64,000 nt of DNA from Caldilineaceae bacterium (GCA_963422415.1 OY729430.1:2517598-2581597); one strand, 5' to 3'. Positions 10,152 to 26,997 are shown, counted from the first letter of the stretch. A program made the numbers and translations. The notes: generated by a model not told the origin, from the sequence alone.

Positions 10152-10194
10152 TGCGCACTCCTGAAGTATGGGGCAATCTCCAGTCCTCGAAACA

Positions 10195-10914
10195 CTACCC
10201 CTTGACCCGGGCCACTATTTCCTGCATCAGACCGCCAAAATTATCCGAATTCGCCTTGAAGGCGTCGCGGGCAATCACCAGCGGCGCCCCAAACACCACA
10301 ATCTCCGCCCCCATCTCCAAGGTGTCCAACGCCTGTTCCACACTCAGCCCCCCCACGGCTTGCACGGGAATGGACACTGCATCGACTACGGTGGCCAAAT
10401 CCTCCAACGGAGTTCGTTCCGGTTCCAGATTCCGCTCGTCGAAGCCAGTATGCACGATGATGTAATCCACTCCCAGCTCTTCCGCCCGGCGGGCCCGTCC
10501 CGGTTTGTCGGGACAGAGCATCACGTCGCACATGACCTTCTTGCCGTACTGGCGGGCCATTGCCACTTGGGCGATGATGCTGGCATCGTGGGCCTGCCCC
10601 ATCACCACCACCATATCCGCACCGGCCCGAAACATCATTTCCCCCTCCAAGCCGGCTCCGTCCATGGTCTTCAGGTCCGCGATGAGGGGGACTCCTGGAA
10701 AGGCCTCCCGCAGAGCTCGCACCCCATGCAGCCCTTCCGCCAGAATCAGGGGCGTGCCGGCTTCCAGCCAATCCACGCCCGCCGCGTGGGCCACGTGGGC
10801 CATCTCCAGAGCTTCGGGAATGGTGGTCACATCCAAGGAAACCTGAATGATAGGGGCAGGGTGGACCGACATGGCTTCCATCTTGAAATTATGCAGAACA
10901 GACTCTAGTTCCAA
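10195..10914 (-). CDS. 3-keto-L-gulonate-6-P decarboxylase / 3-hexulose-6-P synthase family (OMP-decarboxylase superfamily)
   Basis: IIQVSLDV, GVDWLEAGTPL, IADLKTMDGAG and VVVMG motifs. The real start may be the internal MEAM/MSV (about 10872-10881), because 10905-10914 overlaps the upstream gene. Confidence 0.75.
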   Translation of the reverse strand: MELESVLHNFKMEAMSVHPAPIIQVSLDVTTIPEALEMAHVAHAAGVDWLEAGTPLILAEGLHGVRALREAFPGVPLIADLKTMDGAGLEGEMMFRAGADMVVVMGQAHDASIIAQVAMARQYGKKVMCDVMLCPDKPGRARRAEELGVDYIIVHTGFDERNLEPERTPLEDLATVVDAVSIPVQAVGGLSVEQALDTLEMGAEIVVFGAPLVIARDAFKANSDNFGGLMQEIVARVKG

Positions 10915-11942
10915 GTCAGGACAGATTTTACGCTGTACCCTGACTCCATGCGCTCAAAGGCTTCGTGCCACTCTTGCAAGGGATAGACTCCCCCGATCAC
11001 CGGTCCCAGGTTGAGCTGGCCCGTATCCAGCAGCCTTAGCACGCGCTCCCACGTGCCATACGTATGGCTAAAGGCACCCTGCAAGTGAATCGCCTTCTGG
11101 ACCAAAAGATCCAGATTGAAGTCCAGAGGCTGCGGTCCCCATCCAATCTTGGTGATCTGGCCATTGGGACGAACCAGTTCCATGCCCTGCCGCAAGGCCC
11201 GGCTGACTCCGGTGCAATCGACCACCAGATCCGCGCCCGCTCCATCGCCCAGCGAGTCGATCAAGGCCTTGGGATCCTCCTTTTCGACGTTCAGCACATG
11301 ATCGGCCCCCAGCTCTGCGGCCACGTTCAGGCGGCGCGTGTCAGCACCGGTGCCCAAGACCACCAATGTACCAGCTCCGCGTATGCGGGCCACCTGCAGA
11401 GCCATGATGCCAATGGGGCCCGGACCCTGAATAACCACTAGGTCACCGGGACGCATGGCAGTCTTTTCCACCAATGCGTTGTAGGCCACACACCCCGGTT
11501 CCGTCAAGGCGGCTTGCTCATAAGTGACACGGTCCGGAATTCTGTGCAGAATCTCGGGACGGGCCACGACATACGCGGTGAAGGCCCCGTGCGTCAGGGC
11601 TCCGTACCCCAGACGGCTGGGACACATGTTGTAGCTGCCGTCCAAGCAGTAGCTGCAGCGGCCGCAGACGGAGGCCGCGGTTTCGCAGGCAACCCGGTCA
11701 CCTGCCCTAAAGCCCTGTACGTCCTGACCTACCTCCACTATCTCGCCACTGAATTCGTGGCCCAGCACCAAGGGCAGAATAATGTCCCAACTGTGCTGGT
11801 TGCGCCATAAATGCACGTCGCTGCCACAGACACCGGCGGCCTTGACATTGATGACCACCTTGTCCTCGGACCCGGTCGGCTCGTCCATGGAACGAATCTC
11901 GACCTCCCTGTCCCCGGTTCCATATTTGACTAGCGCTTCCAT
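10905..11942 (-). CDS. Zn-dependent MDR dehydrogenase (sorbitol/threonine dehydrogenase-like)
   Basis: GVCGSDVH, GHEFSGEIVEVG, CGRCSYCLDGSYNMC, GPGPIGIM. Confidence 0.85.
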   Translation of the reverse strand: MEALVKYGTGDREVEIRSMDEPTGSEDKVVINVKAAGVCGSDVHLWRNQHSWDIILPLVLGHEFSGEIVEVGQDVQGFRAGDRVACETAASVCGRCSYCLDGSYNMCPSRLGYGALTHGAFTAYVVARPEILHRIPDRVTYEQAALTEPGCVAYNALVEKTAMRPGDLVVIQGPGPIGIMALQVARIRGAGTLVVLGTGADTRRLNVAAELGADHVLNVEKEDPKALIDSLGDGAGADLVVDCTGVSRALRQGMELVRPNGQITKIGWGPQPLDFNLDLLVQKAIHLQGAFSHTYGTWERVLRLLDTGQLNLGPVIGGVYPLQEWHEAFERMESGYSVKSVLTWN

Positions 11943-12864: not shown

Positions 12865-13848
12865 TCAGGGCTCCAGAATTACCTTTATGAGATCCAGTTC
12901 ACCCTTGGCCAACCCCTCGATGATGGCTGGCCCCTCCTCGAGGGGAGCCACCTGTTCAATCAAGGGGGCCACATCCAGGAGACCCGCGTCAATGGACTGG
13001 ATCACCTTCTCGAATTCATCGGAAAACCCATATGTGCCCGCGACAGTGATTTCCCGAGTCACCACTTCCTGCATGTTGACCTCGATCATGAGATCGCTGT
13101 TGCCTATCCACGTCACATGCCCCCCCACTCTGACCATGGCGTGGGCCTGCTGCACCGACTTGGACAGCCCCACGGCCTCAATTGCCACGTCCGCTCCGAT
13201 CTGGCGGGTTATGTCCATAATCCTTGCTACAGGGTCTTCATCCCTGACATTGATGGCCACATCCGCCCCGGCACGGCGTGCCGCCTCCAATCTGCGCTCG
13301 CTCATGTCTGTCACGACAATGGTGCCAGCCCCGCCTAGACGGGCACACAGCATCGCCAGCAAGCCGATGGCGCCGGCGCCGACCACCACCACGGTGTCCA
13401 TAAGATCCAGAGGCGTGCGGGACAGTGCATGCATGGCAATCGAAAGAGGTTCGCACATGGCAGCCTGATGCCAAGTCATGCCTTCCGGCTTGGGGTACAG
13501 CATGGACTTGTGCACACGCACCAAGTCTGCATAGGCCCCTTGCGCATTGACCCCCAGCACATCTCGTTGTCCTATCCCGTCATAGGGAAACAGAGGCGAG
13601 ACAATGACTTCATCCTCTTCTTCCACACCCCTGACATTGCTGCCCAGAGCTGCCACAACGCCACTGAATTCATGGCCCATGATCATGGGAGGAGTACGCC
13701 GGCCGGTACTTCCAGTGTATCCGTGAACATCGGATCCGCAGATGCCCACGGCTTTGACACTGACCAAGACATCATCTGTAGCAAGCTCCGGCGGAGAGGC
13801 CTCGCTGACCTGCATATGCCAAGGAGCGGTGTAAAGCAGTGTCTTCAT
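12865..13848 (-). CDS. MDR-family dehydrogenase lacking the four-Cys structural-zinc lobe
   Basis: GICGSDVHGY, GHEFSGVVAALG, GAGAIGLL. The usual CxxCxxC...C segment is replaced by SPLFPYDGIGQRDVLG. Confidence 0.8.
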   Translation of the reverse strand: MKTLLYTAPWHMQVSEASPPELATDDVLVSVKAVGICGSDVHGYTGSTGRRTPPMIMGHEFSGVVAALGSNVRGVEEEDEVIVSPLFPYDGIGQRDVLGVNAQGAYADLVRVHKSMLYPKPEGMTWHQAAMCEPLSIAMHALSRTPLDLMDTVVVVGAGAIGLLAMLCARLGGAGTIVVTDMSERRLEAARRAGADVAINVRDEDPVARIMDITRQIGADVAIEAVGLSKSVQQAHAMVRVGGHVTWIGNSDLMIEVNMQEVVTREITVAGTYGFSDEFEKVIQSIDAGLLDVAPLIEQVAPLEEGPAIIEGLAKGELDLIKVILEP

Positions 13849-14329
13849 TGAGATGCATCCTGTTGAAAACCGGCAGGATCAGCAAGGTCAAAGGCTACCC
13901 ACCTCGACGGCATGTCCTGTCCAAGGCATGTGCGACTTCAAACGGATCGAACCGCACTGATCTTGGCAGCACCCCAATTGTAACCGTCTCGCGCAGGCAA
14001 AGGGCCAAGCCTCCGTGCCTTGAAAGTCTTGCAGTTCACCTTTGCCCGTCAAGAGATCCTCCTCAATCTCATTTCAATCCAGGCTGCTTGGCAGCACAGA
14101 CACCAGCCTTGCCTGCCCAAGAACCATTTATGACGCCGTGCAAGAGACAGATTTGAGATCCATCCTAGGGACACCCCATTTCCTGTTTGTCCTTTGGATG
14201 AAGACCTGAAAGTTTCCTTGCACAGGGCAAGGCAGTGCAGATCTCAATATCCTTAACGTCGCCGAAATTTGGCAAGCCATGGAGCATCACGGCCTTCATA
14301 AGCCTGGTCAGGTTTTCCCTCGTTTTCAA

Positions 14330-15124
14330 GCGTCTGAGGCATTCCTTTCAAGTTGGACTTTCACCGACTGCACGCGAGCGAAGGCGACGTGCGTGACGCG
14401 TTGCGTGCGGAGCAGATGACAGACCACTGTCGGAATGGCAGCAGGCTCGTGGAGACAGTCGGCGCGAGATTCTGCTGCCATGGTCAGTGGATGGAGGGAC
14501 AGGTCCATGCTGGGATAGGTCACGAGGTCATTGACCGAGAATGTGGCACGGCAATCCTGTCTGTCCCATGCATTGGCGACACAGTCATCAAGGTGGTTTG
14601 CAATTGTCAAACTGTCACTTGCAGTCGTCCTGATGCAAACAGCCCGAAATTGGTTTTGAGCATGCCTGCGCGTCCATCTGTCACAGGTGAAACAGGAAGG
14701 CAACAAGAAACGATGCAAAGATTGTTCTCGCTGCCAGCACAGCAGCGAGAACAATCTCTCGGCATTCCTCGTAGGGCATCTCACTGGCTCCCTGCAAGCG
14801 CAAGGCTTGGGATCGCATGCCGGGTCTAGACTCTGGCACCATCCTTCTGACACCGCATGCGATAGCCACGGCCCCACAGGGGTTTGTCGGCGCAGTTGCA
14901 TATGAAATCCGCTGCCGTGCGCTCAATCCCATGGAGCGTTCATCCGGACGGAGTATCCAAACAAGAATCCATGCAGATTCCCACGATTGCATTGGCTGTC
15001 GAGCTATTCCCATGCCAGACAGCTGCGAAAGCAGCCGCTCTCTTTCATGTTCCGTCGGCGGCCAAGGCCAGCGCGTAGACTTGACGGCCCTAAGGCTGTG
15101 CCGTGGCAGGTGCACAGCAAGCAA
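14330..15124 (-). pseudogene. Possible relic of an IS630/Tc1-like transposase N-terminal (HTH) region - very tentative
   Basis: Minus-strand frames give PPTEHERERLLSQLSGMGIARQPMQSWESAWILVWILRPDERSMGLSARQRISYATAPTNP...ESRPGMRSQALRL. After a frame change they give RWTRRHAQNQ...CRATFSVNDL. This loosely follows the IS630 pattern (LSxEERxxLExL...ARIVLL..G.S...IA..LGVS..TV...RPRSGRP...HWS.R.LA...FKLSNDP). Judged by eye only. No intact ORF or terminal repeats were identified. Confidence 0.15.
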
Positions 15125-15312
15125 ATCGACACGTCGTTATGCCCCGTATGCAAGCAAAGGTCCAAGTGCGAAGCCGTTGAGCACTTGGCCTAGGCTGTCC
15201 ACAGAGCAGCGCGACGCTGATGAAGATCGAAATGTCGGGACACTGCCATCGTCAGCTTCTGGCCGGACAGATGCAGTGTGTGCAAAACCGAGCCCTTCTG
15301 GCAGCAGGATAG

Positions 15313-18300
15313 TCAGTGCGTGATCTGCTGGCGGCAGTCCAGACAACTGGCTGGCAGTGCAACCAGCTGGCCGCTATGGTCCAGAAACAGTCTTTCCAGC
15401 GGGGACAGATCCACGAAGAAGTCTGCCGGAATCGTGGCCAGCTGAGGGGTGCGCCAAATCAACGTGCGCAATGCGGCAAGATCGGCCAACAGATCCTCCG
15501 GTACCGTTGTCAGACGGTCACTCGACAGATACAGATTCTGCAGCTGGGAGAGTCCCGCGAAGAGATTCGGTGGCAGAGCAACCAGATCAACTATATCGGC
15601 CATCGACGTGTCATCCATCCTCAAATCGGTGCCCAGACACAGCATCTGCAGGGCCCCCAAGTCGGCGAAGAGACCCGCCGGCAGTGTGGACAGCTTGGTA
15701 TTGCACAGATTCAGTTTCTGCAGGGCGTCCAGCCCGGCAAAGAGACCCGCCGGCAGCGCAGTCAGCGCCGTGTTGCCACTCAGATACAGCGTCTGCAGGG
15801 CGTCCAGCCCGGCAAAGAGACCCGCCGGCAGGGCAGTCAGCGCCGTGTTGCCACTCAGATACAGCGTCTGCAGGGCGTCCAGCCCGGCAAAGAGACCCGC
15901 CGGCAGCGCAGTCAGCGCCGTGTTATCTCTCAGATTCAGTTCCTGCAGGGCGTCCAGCCCGGCAAAGAGACCCACCGGCAGGGTAGTCAGCGCCGTGTTG
16001 TCATTCAGATACAGCGTCTGCAGGGCGTCCAGCCCGGCAAAGAGACCCACCGGCAGGGTAGTCAGCGCCGTGTTGTCACTCAGATACAGCGTCTGCAGGG
16101 CGTCCAGCTCGGCAAAGAGACCCACCGGCAGGGTAGTCAGCGCCGTGTTGTCACTCAGATACAGCGTCTGCAGGGCGTCCAGCTCGGCAAAGAGACCCAC
16201 CGGCAGGGTAGTCAGCGCCGTGTTGCCACTCAGATACAGCGTCTGCAGGGCGTCCAGCCCGGCAAAGAACTTCCTCGGAACCGCGGCCAGCTGGGGGGTG
16301 TACCAAGACAGCGTGTGCAACGCGGCAAGATCGGCCAATAGATCCTCCGGTACCGTTGTCAGACGGTTACTCGACAGACGCAGCGTCTGCAGGGCGTCCA
16401 GCTCGGCAAAGAACTTCCTCGGAACCGCGGCCAGCTGGGGAGTGTGCCAAGACAGCCTGTGCAACGCGGCAAGATCGGCCAATAGATCCTCCGGTACCGT
16501 TGTCAGACGGTTACTCGACAGACGCAGCGTCTGCAGGGCACTCAGTCCGGCAAAGAGATCTGGTGACAGGCGCTCCACTCTGGTGTCGTGCAGCTGCAGC
16601 GTCTGCAGGGCGTCCAGCCCGGCAAAGAGACCCGCCGGCAGGGTAGCCAGCACCTTGTTGCCGCGCAGATGCAGCGCCTGCAGGGCGGTTAGGCCGGCGA
16701 AAAGACCCACGGGTAGATGCTCCACTCTGGTGTCATGCAGATGCAGCGTCTGCAGGGTGTCCAGCCCGGCAAAGAGACCCGCCGGCAGGTGTTCCACTCC
16801 GGTGTCCTCCAGATGCAGCGTCTGCAGGGCGTCCAGCCCGGCAAAGAGACCCACGGGTAGATGCTCCGCTCCGGTGTCACTCAAATGCAGGGTCTGCAGG
16901 GCGTCCAGTCCAGCAAAGAGACCCGCCGGCAGCGCAGTCAGCACCTTGTTGCCGCGCAGATGCAGGGTCTGCAGGGCATCCAGCCCGGCAAAGAGACCCG
17001 CCGGCAGGTGCCCCACTCCGGTGTCCTCCAGATGCAGGGTCTGCAGGGTGTCCAGCCCGGCAAAGAGACCTACCGGCAGGGCAGTCAGCGCCGTGTTGCC
17101 GCTCAGATGCAGGGTCTGCAGGGTGTCCAGCCCGGCAAAGAGACCTACCGGCAGGGCAGTCAGCGCCGTGTTGCCGCGCAGATGCAGCGTCTGCAGGGCG
17201 TCCAGCCCGGCAAAGAGACCTACCGGCAGGGCAGTCAGCGCCGTGTTGCCGCGCAGATGCAGCGTCTGCAGGGCGTCCAGCCCGGCAAAGAGACCCGCCG
17301 GCAGCGCAGCCAGCTGATTGTAATCCAGATGCAGCGTCTGCAGGGTGTCCAGCCCGGCAAAGAGACCCGCCGGCAGCGCAGTCAGCGCCGTGTTGCCGCG
17401 CAGATGCAGCGTCTGCAGGGCGTCCAGCCCGGCAAAGAGACCCGCCGGCAGGTGTTCCACTCCGGTGTCCTCCAGATGCAGCGTCTGCAGGGCGTCCAGC
17501 CCGGCAAAGAGACCCGCCGGCAGGTGTTCCACTCCGGTGTCCTCCAGATGCAGCGTCTGCAGGGCGTCCAGCCCGGCGAAGAGACCCGCCGGCAGCGCAG
17601 CCAGCTGATTGTGACCCAGATCCAGCGTCTGCAGGGTGTCCAGCCCGGCGAAGAGACCCGCCGGCAGCGCAGCCAGCTGATTGTGACCCAGATCCAGCGT
17701 CTGCAGGGTGTCCAGCCCGGCAAAGAGACCCGCCGGCAGCGCAGCCAGCTGATTGTGACCCAGATCCAGCGTCTGCAGGGCAGTCAGGCCGGCGAAAAGA
17801 CCCGGCGGTAGCGCAGCCAGCTGATTGCGACGCAGATCCAGCGTCTGCAGGGCAGTCAGGCCTGCGAAATCATCAGCCCGCAGCTGACCCAAGTGGCTGT
17901 AGTGCAGATCCAGAGCGGTTACGCTTGCCAGCTGCGCTGCACCAACAGATGCACAGGTCTCCTGGCTCGTCAGTGCAGTCAAGGCGGATGCCACCACCTG
18001 CGCGCGCCCATGCAGGGGGCCGTCCTCGCACCACGCCTCGTTCGTAGTCCAAGCCAGTTTCGTCTCGTAGCGCAGATAGCCTGTGCCCTCTACCCGTTCA
18101 TCATCTACATAGCGCACGGCACCCTCCCGCGTCACCAGAAGTCCAAAGCTGCGTGCCGCTGCGGCCAAGTCCTGTCCTTGTACATCCACCGGATGGGCTA
18201 CCACCGTCCTGTTCACCCGGGTCACTGGCCGGTACCCAGCCGGCACCTTAAACAGATCGGTCGGCTCTTGGCGCGCATAATGCTGCACCGGCGAGCGCCA

Positions 18301-18501
18301 TGCAGCGATCGTAGCTGTCACTTGCATGCCTGTGCGCACCAAGCGGTAACTGCTCTCCCAATGCTCAGCCGGATGATCGTAGGCCCCCTGCGCTACCCAG
18401 GTTGGTGGCGATTCCGACGCCAGCCCCGGCCGGGCCAGCAGGGTCAAGGCCAGCAGCGTTCCCAGTGCCCAACACAGTATTCGGCTGATCCAAGTATGCA
18501 T
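15313..18501 (-). CDS. Secreted leucine-rich-repeat protein LRR1: signal peptide, ~120-aa uncharacterised X module, Cys-containing N-cap, ~35 LRRs of 24/25 aa
   Basis: Start moved to the ATG at 18499-18501 (MHTWISRILCWALGTLLALTLLARPGLA/SE, Sec-type signal) because GGAGAG lies 5 nt upstream. The ORF-track start at 18558 has no such support. I counted ~35 units of consensus LPAGLFAGLDALQTLxLxxNxLTA. The protein ends ...LPASCLDCRQQITH. Confidence 0.85.
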   Translation of the reverse strand: MHTWISRILCWALGTLLALTLLARPGLASESPPTWVAQGAYDHPAEHWESSYRLVRTGMQVTATIAAWRSPVQHYARQEPTDLFKVPAGYRPVTRVNRTVVAHPVDVQGQDLAAAARSFGLLVTREGAVRYVDDERVEGTGYLRYETKLAWTTNEAWCEDGPLHGRAQVVASALTALTSQETCASVGAAQLASVTALDLHYSHLGQLRADDFAGLTALQTLDLRRNQLAALPPGLFAGLTALQTLDLGHNQLAALPAGLFAGLDTLQTLDLGHNQLAALPAGLFAGLDTLQTLDLGHNQLAALPAGLFAGLDALQTLHLEDTGVEHLPAGLFAGLDALQTLHLEDTGVEHLPAGLFAGLDALQTLHLRGNTALTALPAGLFAGLDTLQTLHLDYNQLAALPAGLFAGLDALQTLHLRGNTALTALPVGLFAGLDALQTLHLRGNTALTALPVGLFAGLDTLQTLHLSGNTALTALPVGLFAGLDTLQTLHLEDTGVGHLPAGLFAGLDALQTLHLRGNKVLTALPAGLFAGLDALQTLHLSDTGAEHLPVGLFAGLDALQTLHLEDTGVEHLPAGLFAGLDTLQTLHLHDTRVEHLPVGLFAGLTALQALHLRGNKVLATLPAGLFAGLDALQTLQLHDTRVERLSPDLFAGLSALQTLRLSSNRLTTVPEDLLADLAALHRLSWHTPQLAAVPRKFFAELDALQTLRLSSNRLTTVPEDLLADLAALHTLSWYTPQLAAVPRKFFAGLDALQTLYLSGNTALTTLPVGLFAELDALQTLYLSDNTALTTLPVGLFAELDALQTLYLSDNTALTTLPVGLFAGLDALQTLYLNDNTALTTLPVGLFAGLDALQELNLRDNTALTALPAGLFAGLDALQTLYLSGNTALTALPAGLFAGLDALQTLYLSGNTALTALPAGLFAGLDALQKLNLCNTKLSTLPAGLFADLGALQMLCLGTDLRMDDTSMADIVDLVALPPNLFAGLSQLQNLYLSSDRLTTVPEDLLADLAALRTLIWRTPQLATIPADFFVDLSPLERLFLDHSGQLVALPASCLDCRQQITH
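15690..17880 (-). repeat. In-frame 72/75-bp tandem repeats encoding the LRR1 units, with runs of near-identical copies
   Basis: For example, the unit ggcgtccagcccggcaaagagacccgccggcag...cagatacagcgtctgcag recurs every 75 bp through ~15760-16260 with only a few substitutions. 72-bp versions run through ~17290-17870. A 144-bp double unit is duplicated at ~16270-16560. Confidence 0.9.
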
Positions 18502-19107
18502 CTGCTCTCCTGTCGATCGTGGCCAACTCCCATTGTATTGCACACGGTGACACGACAATCGAGTAGGGCAACCTCAGACGAGAGACGACCCGGAGAGTGC
18601 AGTGGAGGATAAGTCTCCAAGTGCGCAAGCCACCATGAAACCGGTGTCAGTCACAGCGTCTGGGTTCCAAGCAGATACGAAATTACCTAATATGCATATG
18701 CACCTGTCGGCAATACTGACCGAAGAGGCCAAACCACAAACCAAGGTGATCTGATCGGCATCTCTGGCGTGACACGGACAACTCCGAAGCCCCGCACCTG
18801 TGTATGCATGACAAGCCCTATGACTTTTAATCCGTACAACACAAAGGTTTTGGGAGCGCCGAGAAATTTCAGGCCTGTTTGTCCAATTAAACGACATCAC
18901 CATTCAGAACAGAGAGGTCGACTGCCTAGAGTGTTTGATTTGTCTCGTCACTGATCGCGTTATATGCAATGGCGTTCCAATAGCATAAGTGTTTTCCATC
19001 AACAAACACTTGAAATCTTGGCCACCATTGAAAAATGTAGAGACGAGAGCGAATGGAAGTGGACAGAGGCAGGATATTCAGGTTGGTATTAGGTCAGTGA
19101 CGGGAAA

Positions 19108-19142
19108 GGGGCATAGATTCGGGATCCTCCAGTCTATGCCCC
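19108..19142 (-). terminator. Stem-loop ~30 nt downstream of the M23/FN3 gene stop (candidate intrinsic terminator)
   Basis: GGGGCATAGA (19108-19117) pairs with TCTATGCCCC (19133-19142), with a 15-nt loop. On the minus strand it is followed by TTTCCCG, which is only a short U tract. Confidence 0.45.
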
Positions 19143-19170
19143 TGGTTTGAGAGCTTGGATCTGGATAAGC

Positions 19171-22100
19171 TCAGGCAGGCAGAATCAGGACGTGACCGCC
19201 GGGTTCGGGATTGGACCAAGGACCGGCGCCCAAGGCATTGACTGCCTGTACCGAGTAGTACCAGGTGCCATCTACAGTTGGAGCGGCCTCGACATAGGAA
19301 GTGTCCTGTACACGCTCGGTACGCAGCGCATAGGGCTGGTTCCGGCTGGCCAGACGACGGCGCACGCGGTAGTGGGTGACGGGTCGGCCGCCGTCGTGAG
19401 TGGGGGCGGTCCAAGTCAGAGTCACTTGGCCACCAGCCAGACGCACCGTGCCCGCGCCCACCGCAGCGGGGGATGTGCCCACCTGCAGCACGTGACCGCT
19501 GGTTTCAGGATTGGACCAGAGGCTGTCCCCTAGGGCATTGACGGCCTGCACCGAGTAGTACCAGGTGCCGTCCACAGTTGGAGCGGCCTCGACATAGGCA
19601 GTGTCCTGCACGCGCTCGGCACGCAGCGCATAGGCCTGATTCTGGCTGGCCAGACGGCGGCGTACCCGATAGTGGGTGACAGGGCGACCACCGTCGTGGG
19701 TGGGAGCGGTCCAAGTCAGGGTCACCTGGCCACCGGCCAGACGCACCGTGCCCGCGTCCACCGCGCTCGGGGGCGTGCCTACCTGCAGCACGTGACCGCT
19801 GGTTTCGGGATTGGACCAAGGGCTGTCTCCCAAGGCGTTGACCGCCTGTATCGAGTAATACCAGGTGCCATCCACAGTTGGAGCGGCCTCGTCATAGGCG
19901 GTGTCTGGCACGCGTACAGCACGCAACGCATAGGCTTGGTTCTCACTGGCCAAACGTCGGCGCACCCGATAGTGGGTGACAGGGCGACCACCATCGGCAG
20001 CAGGAACGGTCCAAGTCAATGCAACCCGGCCGCCGTACAGGTGCACGGTCCCGGCTCCCACCACCCCTGGGGATGCTGCCGCGGTCACCACCGAGACTGG
20101 AGCCGAGCGGATCCCGGCTGCTGCGGCATGGTGACCTTGCACCGCATAGGCATAGGCTGTGGCCGGAGCCAAATCATGCCGGTCACGCCACTGCGTCAGG
20201 GTCTCTCCCGTGTCCGGCACGTGCCGAACCCAAGATCCTGATGTTCCAACGCGCCGCCACACCCGATAGCCGTGTACCGGCCCGCCGCCGGCTGGCGCCC
20301 GCCAACGCAGCTGCACGTGAGGCCCCACCGCCTCCGCCGTCAGATCCCGGGGCTGTCCAGGTGGAGGCAGTGGGGCAGCCGACGTAGCTACCTGCACTAC
20401 CCCCGAGGGCACCCCCGCCCCCGCCGCGTTCAGGGCGCGCACGCGCAGCAGGTAGACCGTAGCCGCGGCCAGCCCCGTCAGCATGTGCCGCGTGCGCGTG
20501 GACCCCGTGTCCTGCACCAACGCGCGCCAGACCGAACCCGTCCACCGCTCAAGACGGTAGCCCTCAATGCGGGCCCCGCCATTGTGAACCGGCCGGCTCC
20601 AATCCAGCGTGGCCGTGGTGGCCTCAAGACCCTCCGCCTGCAGATTCTCCGGCGCGGCTGGCGGTTGCACCCGCGCCGCTGCCGTCCATCGCACCCGGGC
20701 CGTGTAGCGCAGGTAGCCCACGTGATCCAGCTCCGGCCCGTCCACGTAGCGCACCGCCCCGTCTTGCCCTACTGTCAGATCGAAGCGGGCGGGCAGGCCG
20801 CTCACGTGGTCCGTGCCGTCCGTGTTCACGCGTCGGCCGTCCGGCACCGTGTGCCGGTATTGGCGGGCCGGGCGCAACTCCGCCGGCAGCACGCATAGGT
20901 TTGCCGGATTCTGTCGCGCCGCGTACTGCACCGCCGAGCGCGTGCTGCCCAAGGTACCGGTCACCGTGTTCCCCCGTCGCGTCAGGTCGTAGCGGCCCTC
21001 CCAGTGCACCGCCCGGTTCTGAAAGTGGCCTTGGCGGTTCAGGTCTGGCTGCGAGATCGGCGTCGCCAGCGCCGCCGCCGTCTGCCACTCCAGACCCGTG
21101 ACCTGGTAGGCCAAGTACCCGACATGATCCACCTGATGGTCATTCAGGTAGCGCACCGCCCCGTCTTGCCCGACCGTCAGATCGAAGCGGGCGGGCAGGC
21201 CGCTCACGTGGTCCGTGCCATCCGTGTTCACGTGTCGGCCGTCCGGTACCGTATGCTGGACCGGAGCCGTGGGTCGGAACCCCGCTGGCAACACAAACAG
21301 ATCCTCAGGCCGTTGGCGGGCGTAGTACTGCACCGGAGAGCGGACGCTGCCGAAACTTGCCGTCACCGTGGTATCCCGTTTCGACACCGCCCATCTGCCC
21401 TCCCAGTTCGTGGCCAGATTCAGGTAGCGCCCCGACGCCCTTTGCACGCCACCCGGCGGTGGCGTCGGCATCTCAGGACCCGGCGGCGTGGGTTGCTCCA
21501 CCTGCACCGTGGGCACCTTTGACAGAGTTCCCGACGTCACTACGAAGTTCCTGCTGACCCAACCCGGCATTGCAGTGCGATACTGAATCTGCCACCAGGC
21601 AGGTGTCTCCGCATCCTTGCCCACAATCGGGTACACGGTCCGGTCCGCCAGGCGACCCACCTCTGCATGCACCGTGCTCGGCCCCGAACGCACCGGCAGG
21701 GGCGTGGACACGTCTGTTGCCTCCGCGGACAACACGGCGGACACGATCCTATCCATGTCCGCCCCGGCCAGCGCCTCCGGATCGGCGATCAGACGCGGGT
21801 CGCGCAACGTGCTGACCCGCGTCCCGGTATCGCCCGTCACAGTCACCTGATTCATCCGCACCCAACCGACCTCTTCCTTGGATCGCTCGATTTGCCACCA
21901 ACGTCGTTCGTACCGGATGCCAGGAGGGCCGACATGATCTCGTTGAGAGTGCGCAGGCATATAACGTCCGTCGTGGCCCACAAGGGCATAGGTGCCAGGG
22001 GCCAGCTTGTCAAGGCGATGCTCATCCGTGTTGTCATACGGTTTGCTGTACACATGCACTGTCGTGCCCGCCTTCACCTGCACTTCTGGACAGGACCCCG

Positions 22101-22671
22101 GCGAGATGTTGGAGTTTAGACAATGTCTGTTGATTGCCTGAGGTATGCCACTGGTATCGTTTGTAATCGCATCCCAATTGTATGGGTGCCCCACCAGAAA
22201 ATTCTTGAAATCCCGGCCTCCATTGAAATCATCTCCTATGCCTACAACCCCTTCCTTATTGTATGTCCTGTATCGCACATGCAGGTGCGAGACATCAGTG
22301 TTCGTGCGACCGGAAACACCGATCAGATCACCTTGCTTCACACCTTCTTGGCCCTTCTCAACCAGCAGCACCGACAGGTGTGCATAGGCCAGTTCAAACC
22401 CGCCGCTCGCATCGTCTTCCCGTGCCGTGCGGATGGTGATGTAGTTGCCATAGTTATTCCCTGGATCCCTTAGTGCCTTGTGGACATAGCCTGCAGCCAT
22501 GGCATGGATGGGCGTGCCCGTGCAGCAGCCCCAATCGATGCCTTCGTGGCCCTCCTGTTCAAATTCTTGATAAAGTTCTCTTGTGGCAGGATCATTGAAT
22601 ATATTTGTAATTGTCCAGTTTTCGCCCGGCCGAAACGGTAGTCCTAGTTCGAGGGTTTCATGGGATGTCAT
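19171..22671 (-). CDS. Giant multidomain protein: M23 (LytM-type) metallopeptidase, 2 x SH3b-like, Pro-rich linker, 2 x X module, 5 x fibronectin type III; no recognisable signal peptide
   Basis: AAGGAGA lies 7 nt upstream of the ATG. M23 motifs are HEGIDWG (HxxxD) and DVSHLHV (HxH), at aa ~35-140. SH3b-like segments are VKAGTTVHVYSKP...RRWWQIE...GWV and LPVRSGPS...PAWWQIQY...GWV. X modules are at aa ~415-532 and ~545-665. FN3 units run from aa ~668 (APENLQAEGLEATTATLDWSRP...GYRLERW...YLLRVRALNAAG) to aa 1160. Confidence 0.85.
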   Translation of the reverse strand: MTSHETLELGLPFRPGENWTITNIFNDPATRELYQEFEQEGHEGIDWGCCTGTPIHAMAAGYVHKALRDPGNNYGNYITIRTAREDDASGGFELAYAHLSVLLVEKGQEGVKQGDLIGVSGRTNTDVSHLHVRYRTYNKEGVVGIGDDFNGGRDFKNFLVGHPYNWDAITNDTSGIPQAINRHCLNSNISPGSCPEVQVKAGTTVHVYSKPYDNTDEHRLDKLAPGTYALVGHDGRYMPAHSQRDHVGPPGIRYERRWWQIERSKEEVGWVRMNQVTVTGDTGTRVSTLRDPRLIADPEALAGADMDRIVSAVLSAEATDVSTPLPVRSGPSTVHAEVGRLADRTVYPIVGKDAETPAWWQIQYRTAMPGWVSRNFVVTSGTLSKVPTVQVEQPTPPGPEMPTPPPGGVQRASGRYLNLATNWEGRWAVSKRDTTVTASFGSVRSPVQYYARQRPEDLFVLPAGFRPTAPVQHTVPDGRHVNTDGTDHVSGLPARFDLTVGQDGAVRYLNDHQVDHVGYLAYQVTGLEWQTAAALATPISQPDLNRQGHFQNRAVHWEGRYDLTRRGNTVTGTLGSTRSAVQYAARQNPANLCVLPAELRPARQYRHTVPDGRRVNTDGTDHVSGLPARFDLTVGQDGAVRYVDGPELDHVGYLRYTARVRWTAAARVQPPAAPENLQAEGLEATTATLDWSRPVHNGGARIEGYRLERWTGSVWRALVQDTGSTRTRHMLTGLAAATVYLLRVRALNAAGAGVPSGVVQVATSAAPLPPPGQPRDLTAEAVGPHVQLRWRAPAGGGPVHGYRVWRRVGTSGSWVRHVPDTGETLTQWRDRHDLAPATAYAYAVQGHHAAAAGIRSAPVSVVTAAASPGVVGAGTVHLYGGRVALTWTVPAADGGRPVTHYRVRRRLASENQAYALRAVRVPDTAYDEAAPTVDGTWYYSIQAVNALGDSPWSNPETSGHVLQVGTPPSAVDAGTVRLAGGQVTLTWTAPTHDGGRPVTHYRVRRRLASQNQAYALRAERVQDTAYVEAAPTVDGTWYYSVQAVNALGDSLWSNPETSGHVLQVGTSPAAVGAGTVRLAGGQVTLTWTAPTHDGGRPVTHYRVRRRLASRNQPYALRTERVQDTSYVEAAPTVDGTWYYSVQAVNALGAGPWSNPEPGGHVLILPA
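19192..20091 (-). repeat. Three tandem 300-bp (100-aa) near-identical FN3-coding repeats
   Basis: The copies begin near 19189, 19489 and 19789 (cacgtgaccgctggtttc[ag]ggattggacca...gagta[ga]taccaggtgcc). Protein unit: VLQVGT..AGTVRLAGGQVTLTWTAPTHDGGRPVTHYRVRRRLAS.NQ.YALR.ERVQDT.YVEAAPTVDGTWYYSVQAVNALG...SNPE..GH. Confidence 0.9.
20677..21429 (-). repeat. Tandem duplication encoding the two X modules (period ~402 bp), with a ~105-bp almost identical core
   Basis: 20746-20850 and 21148-21252 match: gtagcgcaccgccccgtcttgccc..gtcagatcgaagcgggcgggcaggccgctcacgtggtccgtgcc.tccgtgttcacg.gtcggccgtccgg. They differ at only a handful of positions. Confidence 0.85.
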
Positions 22672-22800
22672 GCGATATCTCCTTATGCATGGAACAGACT
22701 AGGACGGTACTCTATGTCATTCCGTGCATGTCCGCCATTGCCATCGCGTGGTAGCCGCGTCACTGCAGCGTAGAGCTGTCCGATCCAAATCGCACCCAAA

Positions 22801-22832
22801 GCCCGTTCCATGCCAAGAGGCATGGAACGGGC
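22801..22832 (-). terminator. Perfect 14-bp GC-rich hairpin plus T tract, ~130 nt upstream of the M23 gene and ~570 nt downstream of LRR2
   Basis: GCCCGTTCCATGCC aaga GGCATGGAACGGGC. On the minus strand it is followed by TTTGGGTGCGATTT. It could be the LRR2 terminator, the end of an unannotated RNA, or a leader element of the M23 gene. Confidence 0.5.
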
Positions 22833-23401
22833 AGAGACATCCATCCACGGTAGAGGATGTCAGAACCCATAGTCAAGTCAGATACAAATCAAGGCTTTCC
22901 TGCCAGTCTGTGCCTTCCAACTCTACGCCTGATGTCAGCTACTGGATTACAAGGCTCAGCGGGAAGCATAGGTCGGCGATGTAGTGCAGACAAGCATTTT
23001 TCATAGCAAAAACCACAGTGATTCACTCGGTCCGCTGGACCAGATCCCGCCGAATCGGCTGAGAGTGTAAGTCAAGAAGTCTGTCGGCAGTGATGTCACA
23101 TAGTGAGCAGCTAGGCACACCGAGACCAGATCCAGATTACGGGTCAGCAAGTATCCCAGACGCGCACCGTCCAGTCCCTAGAGAGCCATTCCCACCATTA
23201 CAGCAGGGATGAGTTCCAGCCTTAGGTTGTAGCTGGATCCTCGTCTACTTCACCATTACACAACAGCATCTTCTCTGATTGCTTCCTGTACCCCTACATG
23301 CGCAGACCTGCGGTGACAATCCACTCAACAACCAAAAGTCAGGGCTGTGCGGCAGGCACTCGCTTGTCACTGTTGACAGGGACAGCACTCAGAACATGAA
23401 C

Positions 23402-26320
23402 TTAGGGGCAGACCAGCACATCGTTCCAATATTCGCCCTCGAGCATATGCGCGGGTAGGCAAATCAAAGGGTTGTCGTACATGTACAGCTTTCGCAATTG
23501 GAGAAGGTCGGCAAAGAGACCCACCGGTAGCGTAGCCAAGTAGTTGTTTCTCAATTCCAGCGTTTGCAGTTCGGAGAGGCCGGCAAAGAGATCTTCAGGT
23601 AGCGCAGCCAGTTGGTTGAAACTCAGATCCAGCATTTGCAGTTCGGAGAGGCCGGCAAAGAGATCTTCAGGCAGCGCAGCCAGTTGGTTGGAACTCAGAT
23701 ACAGCGTTTGTAGTTCGGAGAGACCCGCGAAGGCATTCGGCGGCAGATCAGCCAATCTGTTGCGGAGCAGATCCAATCTGCGCAAAGCCGTGAGGTCGGC
23801 AAAGAGATCTTCAGGCAGCGCAGCCAGTTGATTGGAACTCAGATACAGCGTTTGCAGTTCGGAGAGACCCGCGAGGAGATCTTCAGGCAGCGCAGCCAGT
23901 TGATTGGAACTCAGATACAGCGTTTGCAGTTCGGAGAGACCCGCGAGGAGATCTTCAGGCAGCGCAGCCAGTTGGTTGGAACTCAGATCCAGCGTTTGCA
24001 ATTCGGAGAGACCCGCGAGGAGATCTTCAGGCAGCGCAGCCAGTTGGTTGGAACTCAGATCCAGCGTTTGCAATTCGGAGAGACCCGCGAGGAGATCTTC
24101 AGGCAGCGCAGCCAGTTGGTTGGAACTCAGATCCAGCGTTTGCAGTTCGGAGAGGCCCGCGAAGAGATCCGCTGGCACTGCAGCTAGTTGGTTGGAACTC
24201 AGATCCAGCGTTTGCAGTTCGGAGAGACCCGCGAGGAGATCTTCAGGCAGCGCAGCCAGTTGGTTGGAACTCAGATCCAGCGTTTGCAGTTCGGAGAGGC
24301 CCGCGAAGAGATCCGCTGGCACTGCAGACAGTTGATTGTGGCCCAGCTCCAGCGTTTGCAATCTGGAGAGATCGGCGAAAAAATCCGCTGGCAGCGTATT
24401 CAGTCGGTTGAAGCGCAGATCCAGTGTCTGCAGTTTGGAGAGATCGGCGAAGAGACCTGCCGGCACTGCAGCCAGTGAGTTGTAGTCTATCTCGCTGGAG
24501 TGAAAGGCCCTCGGATCCCGAGGACCCAAAATCAGCGACTGCAGGTCTGTCAGACCTGCAAAAAGACCGGGCGGCAGCGTATCCAGTTGCTCGCTGTACA
24601 GTGTCAGCGATTGCAGTGCAGCCAAGTCCATAAAAAGATCGGACGGCAGCACGCTTAGGTTCAAAAGGGACACTTCCAGCGACTGCAGGTCTGTCAGACC
24701 TGCAAAAAGACCGGGCGGCAGCGTATCCAGTTGCTCGCTGTGCAGTGTCAGCGATTGCAGTGCAGCCAAGTCCATAAAAAGATCGGACGGCAGCGCGCTT
24801 AGGTTGGAAAGGAACAGCTTCATCGATTGCAGATCCCTCAAGCCGGTGAAAAGGTTGGACGGCAGCATGCGCGGGTTCGGCAGGGAAGGCTCCACCCACA
24901 GCCATATGGCATCGTGAGCGTAACGGTCTATAAGGGGAGAAGGCGACCGCGGGGAAAAGGAAGGAATGGCATCAATGTCGTACAGTTCCAGCGATTGCAG
25001 GGCGGCCAGGTCGGAGAAAAGACCCGACGGCAGGGCAGCGGCAAAGTTGTACAGTTCCAGCGACTGCAGGGCGGTCAGGTCGGAGAAAAGACCCGACGGC
25101 AGGGTACCAGCAATGTTGTACAGTTCCAGCCATTGCAGGGCGGCCAGGTCGGAGAAAAGACCCGACGGCAGGACGGTCACGTGGGGAATGAACAGTTCCA
25201 GCGATTGCAAATCCGACTGATCGGCGAAGAGATCCGATGGCAGGACGGTCACGTGGGGAATGAACAGTTCCAGCGATTGCAAATCCGACTGATCGGCGAA
25301 GAGATCCGGCGGCAGGGCCGTCATGGCACTGCTGAACAGATGCAGCTCTTGCAGTTGGGAGAGCCCAGTGAAAAGACTTGGTGGCAAGGCTGTCAGATCG
25401 AGATTATGCTCCATTATGCGAGGACCGCCGCGTCCAGTACCCAACCACAGCTGCTGCAGACTAGCAAGGGGTACGAAGAGATTCTCAGGCAGAACAGTCA
25501 ACCGGGTATAGCGCAAATGCAGGGTGTGCAGGTGGTCTAGCCCAACAAACGACTCGGGTGCTAGAGTCGTCAGTTCGGTGAAGTTCAGATTCAAGGTGTG
25601 CAGCCGGGAGAGACCGGCGAAAAGGCCCACTGGCAGAGTGGTGAGTCTGCTGTATCTTAGATCCAAGCTATGCAAGACCGTAAGCCCAGTAAAGAGATCG
25701 GATGGCAGGGTAGGCGCGGTGCTGTACAGCTTCAGCGTTTGCAGGGCGGTCAGGTCAGAGAAAAGGCTGGCTGGTACGGTGTCAACGCTGTGCAGCTTCA
25801 GCGTTTGCAGTCCGGAGAGGCCCGCGAAGGCATTCGGCGGCAGATCGGCCAATCTGTTGCGGAGCAGATCCAATCTGCGCAAAGCCGTGAGTCCAGCGAA
25901 GAGATTCGGGGGCAGAGCAGTCAAGTTGTTATCCCTCAGATCCAAGCTGTGCAAGGCTGTGAGCCCGGCAAAATCACCGGTCTGTAGGACGCGCAGGCTC
26001 CTTCCTCTCAGATTCAAAGCAACAATGGCCGACAGGTGTGCCGGAGTGATCTGGGCGCAGACCAGGCCGGTCTGCGCCTCCAGTGCATTCACTATCCCTT
26101 GCGTGCGTCCATGCAGAGGACCGGTGCCACATCCCTCTTCGTCCGTGAACCGGACCGGGGTCACCGTAGCTGTCTGTTCCCCCTTGGGGTTGTCTGCATA
26201 GAATGCCACTCCGTCCGATCCCAAAGTCAAGTCCAGGCTGTGCTCCGCCGGATCGGACCACTCCAGACTCATGCCCAAGTACAGCGACACCACCAACATC
26301 CACCGCATGTACACTTGCAT
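23402..26320 (-). CDS. Leucine-rich-repeat protein LRR2 (paralogue of LRR1): short hydrophobic N-terminus, truncated X-module remnant, Cys N-cap, ~34 LRRs, Cys-containing C-cap
   Basis: Start moved to the ATG at 26318-26320 (MQVYMRWMLVVSLYLGMSLEW...) because GGAGGTG lies 4 nt upstream. GCGTGPLHGRTQGIVNAL...VCAQI parallels WCEDGPLHGRAQVVASAL...TCASV of LRR1. Repeat units include LSELQTLDLSSNQLAALPEDLLAG. The C-terminus is YDNPLICLPAHMLEGEYWNDVLVCP. Confidence 0.85.
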   Translation of the reverse strand: MQVYMRWMLVVSLYLGMSLEWSDPAEHSLDLTLGSDGVAFYADNPKGEQTATVTPVRFTDEEGCGTGPLHGRTQGIVNALEAQTGLVCAQITPAHLSAIVALNLRGRSLRVLQTGDFAGLTALHSLDLRDNNLTALPPNLFAGLTALRRLDLLRNRLADLPPNAFAGLSGLQTLKLHSVDTVPASLFSDLTALQTLKLYSTAPTLPSDLFTGLTVLHSLDLRYSRLTTLPVGLFAGLSRLHTLNLNFTELTTLAPESFVGLDHLHTLHLRYTRLTVLPENLFVPLASLQQLWLGTGRGGPRIMEHNLDLTALPPSLFTGLSQLQELHLFSSAMTALPPDLFADQSDLQSLELFIPHVTVLPSDLFADQSDLQSLELFIPHVTVLPSGLFSDLAALQWLELYNIAGTLPSGLFSDLTALQSLELYNFAAALPSGLFSDLAALQSLELYDIDAIPSFSPRSPSPLIDRYAHDAIWLWVEPSLPNPRMLPSNLFTGLRDLQSMKLFLSNLSALPSDLFMDLAALQSLTLHSEQLDTLPPGLFAGLTDLQSLEVSLLNLSVLPSDLFMDLAALQSLTLYSEQLDTLPPGLFAGLTDLQSLILGPRDPRAFHSSEIDYNSLAAVPAGLFADLSKLQTLDLRFNRLNTLPADFFADLSRLQTLELGHNQLSAVPADLFAGLSELQTLDLSSNQLAALPEDLLAGLSELQTLDLSSNQLAAVPADLFAGLSELQTLDLSSNQLAALPEDLLAGLSELQTLDLSSNQLAALPEDLLAGLSELQTLDLSSNQLAALPEDLLAGLSELQTLYLSSNQLAALPEDLLAGLSELQTLYLSSNQLAALPEDLFADLTALRRLDLLRNRLADLPPNAFAGLSELQTLYLSSNQLAALPEDLFAGLSELQMLDLSFNQLAALPEDLFAGLSELQTLELRNNYLATLPVGLFADLLQLRKLYMYDNPLICLPAHMLEGEYWNDVLVCP
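23550..24480 (-). repeat. In-frame 72-bp tandem repeats (about 13 units, several nearly identical) encoding LRR2 units; further block duplications up to ~25990
   Basis: Unit: cagccagttggttggaactcagatccagcgtttgca[ag]ttcggagagacccgcgaggagatcttcaggcagcg. A 144-bp double unit is duplicated at ~24540-24830. Another duplicated unit lies at ~25176-25310 (FADQSDLQSLELFIPHVTVLPSDL x2). Confidence 0.9.
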
Positions 26321-26997
26321 TGTCCACCTCCGAGACGTCGCTGGTCCCAAGGCTGGAAGATCTCCTGGAGACTGGTCTACGTCGCCTTGCCAGAGTGTTA
26401 CGAATTCTGAATCAAACAAGGGCTATCGGTGATTCCATAGCCTCAAGGTCAGTCCCAATCCGGTCCTTGGATCCTATTGATGATATAGTGTCGGCTTCTT
26501 TCTGTAGCCTTGTCGCAGGTGACATATCTGCCGACACTCGACCGTACACTAGTCTCCGCGGTCACTGAGGGGATAGCTGGGAGGGACAAGGGCCAACAAG
26601 TGTCCACGTCCGTTGACTTCCCTCATGCTTCAATGCGCGCATCGTCCCATCCGCACCAACGTGCCATCGGCAGTTCAATAGTCTCGCGGATACCCTCAGC
26701 TTTTTGGCGCTGGTTCAGGACATCCTCTGCAGCAGAATCCGGCAGAGAAGACGCGCTGACCTGCATGTGTCAAGGAAGAGTATGAAGCAGAGACTTTTTC
26801 CACAGTGTCAGAGGTCTCTTTACAAGCACGAGGGCAGGAGGATCGACCAGAACTGCACCTGCAAGCCAAAGATTGCATTTCAGGACCGCTCGGCCTACCT
26901 CACCTGCGTTGCCTGTCGATGAACCTATATTCATTCGTCTTTCGTTTATCCTTTGGGGCCAAGATTCTCTTGAACAGGGCAAGGCAACAACCAGACG

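Follow-up and report, generated by a model that had tools for sequence, protein, structure and literature searches.

Why does a single domain recur in otherwise unrelated protein architectures that are encoded side by side? The question is raised by three genes in a 64,000-nt stretch of Caldilineaceae bacterium DNA (GCA_963422415.1 OY729430.1:2517598-2581597, hereafter the window), which lie head-to-tail, all on the minus strand, and are referred to as LRR1 and LRR2, encoding leucine-rich repeat (LRR) proteins, and, located between them, the gene of the M23 protein, which combines an M23 peptidase with fibronectin type III (FN3) repeats. The shared domain, here named X, was identified once in LRR1, in two tandem copies in the M23 protein and, as a putative remnant, in LRR2. 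It was established that the copies are homologous and how far the family extends, as were its domain architectures, a confidently predicted fold with its nearest structural class, and a recurrent gene neighbourhood. As to the role of X, the favoured reading, with a probability of roughly 0.55, is that X is a cellular module resembling the head domains of phage receptor-binding proteins (RBPs), which would act at a surface, probably by binding glycan, to target or anchor the protein that carries it.

Homology, database status and extent of the X family

A preliminary description of the window had claimed one homologous module in otherwise unrelated architectures, with one copy in LRR1 and two in the M23 protein, and the copies were recovered at the quoted stretches by both BLASTP and a family hidden Markov model (HMM). 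In composition-adjusted BLASTP, X of LRR1 (nt 18022-18396, minus strand, aa 55-179) and the first copy of the M23 protein (tandem position T1, nt 21058-21441, minus strand, aa 411-538) shared 42% identity (E=5e-28), and the first and second copies (tandem position T2, nt 20659-21039, minus strand, aa 545-671) shared 60% (E=1e-52). The family HMM gave the three full copies 151, 163 and 155 bits, respectively, and the sole other stretch of the window to score was the LRR2 remnant, at 2.3 bits. A compositional artefact is ruled out by the composition-adjusted E-values together with the confidently predicted fold described below.

The claim of a remnant of X in LRR2 (last third of the module, nt 26135-26251, minus strand, aa ~57-95, with ~70 central residues gone) held in part. 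The HMM score of 2.3 bits is not significant alone, but LRR2 aa 58-134 is collinear with LRR1 aa 134-215, which comprises the last third of X and a Cys/GPLHGR linker, with an E-value of 4e-10 in BLASTP when the linker is included. The remnant occupies the position of X in LRR1, with a signal-like N-terminus before it and the LRR cap after it, and the residues DPAEH, matching the start of the LRR1 module, are still present. The simplest reading of this sequence pattern is an internal deletion of ~70 residues of X in LRR2, which makes the remnant plausible, but the bulk of its statistical support comes from the linker.

As the preliminary description had supposed, X is not a named domain. The three window copies produced no Pfam match even at E<=10 and nothing relevant in NCBIfam, and in the Pfam annotation of the two proteins nothing is assigned to residues ~410-672 (M23 protein) or to the N-terminal ~180 residues (LRR1). 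Single scans of 79 diverse members against Pfam and NCBIfam returned merely scattered single-member noise, and comparison of X profiles with the sequences of the PDB likewise gave noise only (e.g. PpsR, E=0.018). To known cell-wall- and carbohydrate-binding modules (SH3b, LysM, SLH, GW, and carbohydrate-binding modules, CBMs) there was neither a profile nor a structural match, and CBM-like hits in Foldseek were limited to CGTase domains (E ~0.2, template modelling (TM) score ~0.25).

The HMM search proposed in the preliminary description was run exhaustively with HMMER on 1.84 billion cluster representatives (clusters at 50% identity). It retrieved 275 proteins when the threshold was E<=1e-3, of which 123 remained at E<=1e-30; with 275 clusters, the X family is real but rare. 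A word-indexed search was less productive, with 10 mostly fragmentary proteins obtained from the three window copies and two matches from an 18-sequence alignment. The contigs of these ten proteins carried many further X copies, which had been split by gene callers or were too divergent for shared words. One such locus, L001, encodes a 1320-aa LRR protein with three X, and two others, L002 and L003, contain several X-bearing genes each. No match was found when the family consensus was queried by tblastn against 50,697 INPHARED phage genomes, and no relative was found among the viral contigs of IMG/VR.

In the scan of a metagenome collection, one X locus was detected (L005, MKWU01000311.1:29899-50246), in which the gene at ~9323-11755 encodes an X-X-LRR protein. 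This contig is derived from a metagenome of the sponge Aplysina aerophoba, which contains Caldilineae bins. Genome contigs scanned with the full M23 protein gave one locus in a Caldilineaceae metagenome-assembled genome (L004, 42% identity, N-terminal part only), at which X is not present. LRR and other eukaryote-like repeat proteins have been seen as symbiosis features of sponge Chloroflexi (PMC6306507). The protein classes to which X is fused (LRR, WD40, RCC1 and FN3) are the repeat classes of the eukaryote-like proteins of sponge-associated bacteria, Caldilineae included; the sponge-symbiont papers describe these repeat classes, not X. Because of these fusions and of the sponge origin of L005, there are hints that the X family belongs to sponge-associated Caldilineae-like bacteria.

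Predicted fold and likeness to phage proteins

AlphaFold2 prediction from the three window copies alone was unusable, with a predicted local distance difference test (pLDDT) value of 44. On an alignment of 79 sequences, with the first copy of the M23 protein as the modelled sequence, pLDDT rose to 95.6 with a predicted TM score (pTM) of 0.87, and the resulting model is a beta-sandwich of eight or nine strands and one short helix. The Foldseek comparison, proposed like the structure prediction in the preliminary description, placed phage RBP head domains exclusively at ranks 1-25 against the PDB (query-normalised TM 0.49-0.56), i.e. TP901-1 ORF49, p2 ORF18, chimeras of both, and gp15 of Listeria phage PSA. 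The best match had an E-value of 3.5e-4, a probability of 1.0, TM scores of 0.55 (query-normalised) and 0.70 (target-normalised), and ~14% sequence identity. Adenovirus fibre knobs appeared lower in the list. Among the predicted structures of BFVD, the top matches included a "Receptor binding protein" of an uncultured siphovirus (E=2.9e-5, query-normalised TM 0.64), a tail protein of Streptomyces phage BRock, and further proteins annotated as tail or minor tail from phages of Microbacterium, Arthrobacter, Corynebacterium, Enterococcus and Lactococcus; query-normalised TM was 0.64 at most.

In the p2 and TP901-1 RBPs, the head is an antiparallel beta-barrel that forms the tip of a homotrimer and resembles the heads of reovirus sigma1 and adenovirus fibre (PMC3893620). 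In phages of Gram-positive hosts, these heads recognise a phospho-polysaccharide of the host cell wall, and the binding sites for glycerol and saccharides, with His, Asp and Arg residues plus an aromatic one, are located where two heads meet (PMC3893620). Like the siphophage RBP heads (p2 ORF18, TP901-1 ORF49/BppL, PSA gp15), X is predicted to be an antiparallel beta-barrel or sandwich of ~100-130 residues. The RBP heads form the C-terminal tip of a trimeric fibre, whereas X is N-terminal or internal, located before the FN3 repeats; they are accompanied by neck/shoulder or stem domains, whereas X is without neck or shoulder and occurs in one or two tandem copies; and they are encoded in phage tail and baseplate modules, whereas the genes that carry X are cellular and encode a Sec signal or an enzyme head as well.

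At the sequence level, weak but recurrent HMM matches connected X to two PHROG families: phrog_3971, of which the function is not known, was matched by 28 of the 79 members (best E=1.1e-6), and phrog_3639, "minor tail protein", by 20 of the 79 (best E=2.9e-5). These matches were always to the C-terminal ~100 profile positions, as for X of LRR1 against phrog_3971 (E=5e-4, profile positions 222-321 of 331), and the scores were at most ~24 bits in ten sequences inspected individually. What is claimed from model and profiles is a fold-class likeness of X to RBP heads, together with weak homology to the C-termini of phage tail proteins. An assignment of X to a well-known family, named in the preliminary description as the outcome that would speak against a novel module, was found in the structural sense only: no Pfam or NCBIfam family was matched, but the predicted fold is a known structural class of glycan-binding domains. 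On the basis of the model, X is no longer a fold orphan.

The most conserved stretch of X is aa 36-59 (RSPVQyxARQxPxxLFxxPxGFRP), within which R36, S37, P38, V39, Q40, A43, R44, P54, R58 and P59 are each kept in >=80% of the 79 members. The most variable stretch is a loop at aa 74-84.

Architectures, gene neighbours and possible role of X

The architectures were counted in ~155 examined members of the family, in which two classes dominated. LRRs are present in ~71 of them (class A), in the order signal peptide or lipobox, one or two X, and LRR solenoid. A signal-peptide-like N-terminus, in some with a lipobox, was recognised in ~49 LRR members, and in most of these the first X starts ~30-80 residues from the N-terminus, usually directly after the signal; signal peptides were judged from the translations and by a crude hydrophobicity screen across the family. 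LRR1 is typical of class A, with X as its sole non-LRR domain. Class B proteins have an N-terminal enzyme head, SH3-like domains, a tandem X-X and, in most, FN3 repeats. The heads of the 18 class B proteins examined are M23 peptidases (13) or glycosidase-like (five); the tandem X-X was present in 18/18 and a signal peptide in 0/18. A missed signal peptide is excluded for the M23 protein of the window because there are just nine codons from the upstream stop to its ATG. In a few members X is fused to WD40 propellers or RCC1 repeats. X occurs in one, two, three or four copies per protein, and many LRR proteins carry two.

The genome of the window contains at least four class B paralogues, as in addition to the M23 protein (identical to family member P0013) the same NCBI/ENA contig of 3,472,255 bp encodes three further large X-X proteins, P0012, P0019 and P0028. 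Over 851 aa, residues 321-1166 of the M23 protein (SH3-X1-X2-FN3x5) share 73% identity with residues 576-1425 of P0012, a same-genome paralogue with a glycosidase-like head in place of M23; the same X-X cassette is found on two different hydrolase heads. The N-terminal ~420-aa head of P0012, which recurs at L002:450-2546 and L003:15876-20537, had no Pfam or PDB match. Its motifs "...YWVIANE..." and "...VIVSEYG..." resemble, as read by eye, those of clan GH-A glycosidases, and the head is on this ground termed glycosidase-like.

Position within the tandem is maintained across proteins. The first X copies of the M23 protein and P0012 are 79% identical, and the second copies 82%. In a nearest-neighbour test across proteins, T1 copies paired with T1 in 13/22 cases and never with T2, and T2 copies with T2 in 16/22 cases and never with T1, wherefore the X1-X2 pair is taken as an old, non-equivalent unit. 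X of LRR1 belongs to a separate, LRR-type subfamily, with 55% identity to its nearest relative (P0002) and ~42% to the hydrolase copies. As the LRR-type and hydrolase-type X are distinct subfamilies at this level of identity, X has not been recently exchanged among the window genes.

At the DNA level, the tandem copies of the M23 gene are ~73% identical overall and 86% identical across 154 nt (20704-20857 vs 21106-21259; repeat family D10), and in protein, segment 61-100 is 87% identical vs 40-50% in the flanking segments. The 154-nt stretch looks like the product of local gene conversion. The same pattern in segment 61-100 was seen in paralogue P0012, and the family in general is without it. 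A specificity loop kept identical between tandem copies as a family rule was rejected, since the mean T1/T2 identity of segment 61-100 was 0.425 and the value of 87% was confined to the M23 protein and P0012.

X-LRR genes adjoin X-X hydrolase genes in four loci (the window, L001, L002 and L003), the contexts of which are all different. In L002, an X-LRR gene was identified together with two X-X genes, one of them glycosidase-like and the other of the M23-SH3-X-X-FN3 type, and in L003 a glycosidase-like gene (X-SH3-X-X-FN3) is accompanied by two X-X-LRR genes. In L001, the X and M23 pieces beside the X-LRR gene are fragments. The X-LRR gene of this locus (L001:10573-14535, minus strand), which belongs to a genome of 4.86 Mb, encodes the 1320-aa protein mentioned above, which is lipoprotein-like with the order X-X-LRR-X-LRR, and the adjoining short, out-of-frame fragments of an X module and an M23 domain (L001:9551-10479, plus strand) appear to be a decayed class B gene. 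The functional link between the three window genes that had been inferred from their common module gains indirect support from these four loci, which, like the bracketing of the window block described below, speak for an association of the genes but do not demonstrate a joint function; the X modules of the LRR and hydrolase genes are of distinct subfamilies.

In the favoured reading, X of class A proteins would hold the LRR solenoid on the cell envelope, or direct it there, and in class B the hydrolase head would be brought to its substrate in the wall by the tandem X-X and SH3 jointly, as is the case with lysostaphin SH3b and Listeria GW modules. The conserved segment aa 36-59 is the best candidate for the contact surface of X, and the hypervariable loop aa 74-84 a candidate tuner of its specificity. 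As the motif is conserved across genomes and passengers, a ligand that is itself conserved, for instance a polymer of the wall or sheath, seems to us more likely than strain-specific receptors such as those of phage RBPs. The targeting or anchoring role put forward in the preliminary description gains from the RBP-head-like fold, from X as the only non-LRR domain of LRR1, and from the X-X cassette on two heads, but we infer the binding itself, as well as the glycan nature of the ligand and the surface that would bear it.

The closest functional analogy is with the GW modules of Listeria (InlB, Ami) and the SH3b domains of the lysostaphin/ALE-1 type, which hold LRR proteins and wall hydrolases on the envelope and have SH3-like folds. 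Like these, X is one non-catalytic module reused on an LRR protein and a peptidoglycan hydrolase, and the M23 protein, like lysostaphin and ALE-1, combines an M23 catalytic head with a separate putative targeting domain. Unlike them, X is predicted to be an RBP-head-like sandwich and has no sequence relationship to GW or SH3b, and the M23 protein has an SH3_3 domain of its own beside X.

Several observations weigh against a surface-targeting role modelled on phage RBPs. The structural likeness is moderate (TM ~0.55-0.64, ~14% identity); in hhalign, comparison of the 79-sequence alignment with TP901-1 BppL was not significant (probability 0.45%, E=0.13), for which reason no membership of X in the lactococcal RBP head family is claimed; and unlike X of LRR1, the two X copies of the M23 protein had no PHROG match. 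The binding mode of RBPs may not transfer to X, because position, neck and copy number differ. The X motif is unusually invariant for receptor recognition, and the partner could equally be a protein. For class B, which is without a recognisable export signal, an extracellular location is assumed, and several class A proteins look, from their N-termini, like lipoproteins, by which a separate anchor would be less needed.

The conservation of the core motif across passengers is also what would be expected of a shared protein interface, and X could be a docking or oligomerisation module by which X of different proteins associate and LRR proteins are coupled to hydrolases. In one variant, a single X of an LRR protein and the X-X of a hydrolase would form a pseudo-trimeric head similar to the phage RBP trimer. 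RBP heads are indeed obligate trimers (PMC3893620), adjacent genes of the window provide two plus one X copies, four loci combine X-LRR genes with neighbouring X-X hydrolase genes, and T1 and T2 are non-equivalent subtypes. The arithmetic of two plus one is not general, however, since two X copies are frequent in LRR proteins and three or four occur in some proteins, fusions to WD40 and RCC1 exist too, and class B proteins have no export signal with which to meet the secreted LRR proteins; docking is regarded as doubtful. That X would have no ligand of its own and serve as an inert Ig/FN3-like spacer, extending the protein from the cell surface, is less probable still. Although it is an all-beta sandwich adjoining FN3 and SH3 domains, and a Foldseek TM of ~0.55 cannot establish function, the polar cluster R36, S37, Q40, R44 and R58 is invariant in >80% of the 79 members, which is atypical of a spacer, the positions of X are fixed (adjoining the signal peptide, or in front of FN3 as the pair T1-T2), and it is to receptor-binding heads specifically, rather than to Ig or FN3 folds, that the structure is most similar.

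Phage tail proteins are known to contain M23 peptidases and FN3 domains, and with the fold and PHROG matches and the signal-less, virion-protein-like class B, the genes could be read as tail-fibre and tail-lysin genes of a prophage or tailocin, in which X is an RBP head in its native setting. This is very improbable: no phage structural, packaging or lysis genes surround the block in the window, where dehydrogenases, an ABC transporter and a pentapeptide-repeat protein are encoded next to it; the searches of phage genomes and IMG/VR were negative, the former of which also sets X apart from phrog_3971 and phrog_3639; class A proteins carry Sec or lipoprotein signals; and at least four class B paralogues are present in one genome. 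A more speculative idea, which we consider possible at most, is that a Caldilineae-like, possibly sponge-symbiont, lineage has domesticated a phage receptor-binding head, X, and uses it as an address label for general purposes, with which peptidoglycan and glycan hydrolases as well as LRR, WD40 and RCC1 scaffolds would be guided. The target would then be a particular glycan carried by other cells or by the host, and class B proteins would be natural lysin-RBP fusions, i.e. bacteriocin-like enzymes with phage-type recognition, which would be exported without a signal peptide, with the adjacent X-LRR proteins acting on the same surface.

Returning to X as a targeting or anchoring module, the family adds to the searched Pfam and NCBIfam a domain that is absent from both, with a confident predicted fold and clear architectural rules, and it appears to be a phage receptor-binding fold reused by cellular genes. 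It is carried by wall hydrolases and by LRR, WD40 and RCC1 proteins, repeat proteins for which a part in host interaction is under discussion in sponge symbionts. If the binding is true, X would show how poorly understood repeat proteins are localised, and lysins guided by RBPs would have a template in nature. With M23 and glycosidase-like enzymes that lack a signal peptide on a common SH3-X-X-FN3 chassis, the question of export becomes a concrete one.

Layout of the three-gene block and its surroundings

The LRR1 gene (nt 15313-18558, minus strand) has a longest open reading frame (ORF) of 1081 aa, of which the ATG at nt 18501 is the likely true start. A Sec-type signal peptide is predicted from the translation at nt 18418-18501 (minus strand; MHTWISRILCWALGTLLALTLLARPGLA|SE), without a dedicated predictor, and is followed by one X, the Cys/GPLHGR linker and ~35 leucine-rich repeats (Pfam LRR_8, E=9.5e-208). 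Besides X and the LRRs, no further domain or anchor was found in LRR1 by Pfam and inspection of the translation. The LRR2 gene (nt 23402-26419, minus strand, 1005 aa) encodes a weak signal-like N-terminus, the putative X remnant, the Cys/GPLHGR linker and LRRs. The LRR arrays of LRR1 (nt 15382-17944) and LRR2 (nt 23364-25969) are long runs of 72/75-nt DNA repeats, in which many units are 80-90% identical and the repeat families are common to both genes.

The M23 protein gene (nt 19171-22671, minus strand) encodes 1166 aa in the order M23 peptidase, SH3-like region, X1, X2 and five FN3 repeats. The Peptidase_M23 catalytic domain (PF01551; nt 22258-22551, minus strand, aa 41-138) was identified with E=2.3e-16 and 60.2 bits vs the cut-off of 28.7 bits, and its zinc motifs H42-x3-D46 (H42-EGI-D46) and H129-x-H131 (H129-L-H131) are intact. 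The bacterial SH3 domain (SH3_3; nt 21541-21699, minus strand, aa 325-377; E=5.5e-6) scored 26.9 bits, slightly below the 27-bit cut-off. The five FN3 repeats (nt 19174-20655, minus strand) were recognised by Pfam fn3 in five stretches (E=5.9e-38), the final three of them (nt 19186-20085) as ~300-nt DNA repeats of 76-85% identity. Like the LRR arrays, such FN3 arrays are prone to recombination and copy-number change. Most of the M23-headed X-X proteins have in common a short motif at or near the N-terminus, ...HGL(S/T)... followed by ...(L/F)PF.PGE.W; the regions considered were nt 22633-22671 of the M23 protein gene and the N-termini of its relatives (P0019, P0021, P0028, P0030, P0033, P0035, P0040, P0043, P0048 and P0064).

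The block of about 12.9 kb that comprises LRR1, the M23 gene and LRR2 is bracketed exactly by two copies of the 5' end of an alcohol-dehydrogenase-like (ADH) gene. The intact copy forms the left edge (nt 13699-13848, minus strand; repeat family D12), and a decayed duplicate with an in-frame stop the right edge (nt 26690-26799, minus strand), the respective translations being MKTLLYTAPWHMQVSEASPPELATDDVL and KKSLLHTLP*HMQVSASSLPDSAAEDVL. A joint arrival, or a joint rearrangement, of the three genes is suggested by this bracketing. Neither an integrase nor a transposase was detected in the gaps of the block. These gaps, which are unusually long and have no convincing ORF, are located at nt 13849-15312 (1.46 kb), 18559-19170 (0.6 kb), 22672-23401 (0.7 kb) and 26420-26997 (0.6 kb); the ORFs around and between the three genes had no Pfam match, neither Rfam matches nor tRNAs were detected there, and promoter and terminator scans of the gaps stayed at background level. 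LRR1, the M23 gene and LRR2 are probably separate transcription units. Adjoining the block, a gene at nt 26998-28362 (plus strand) encodes a pentapeptide-repeat protein of 454 aa, the N-terminus of which includes a hydrophobic segment, and beyond this gene an ABC transporter of the peptide/oligosaccharide type (SBP_bac_5 and permease) is encoded.

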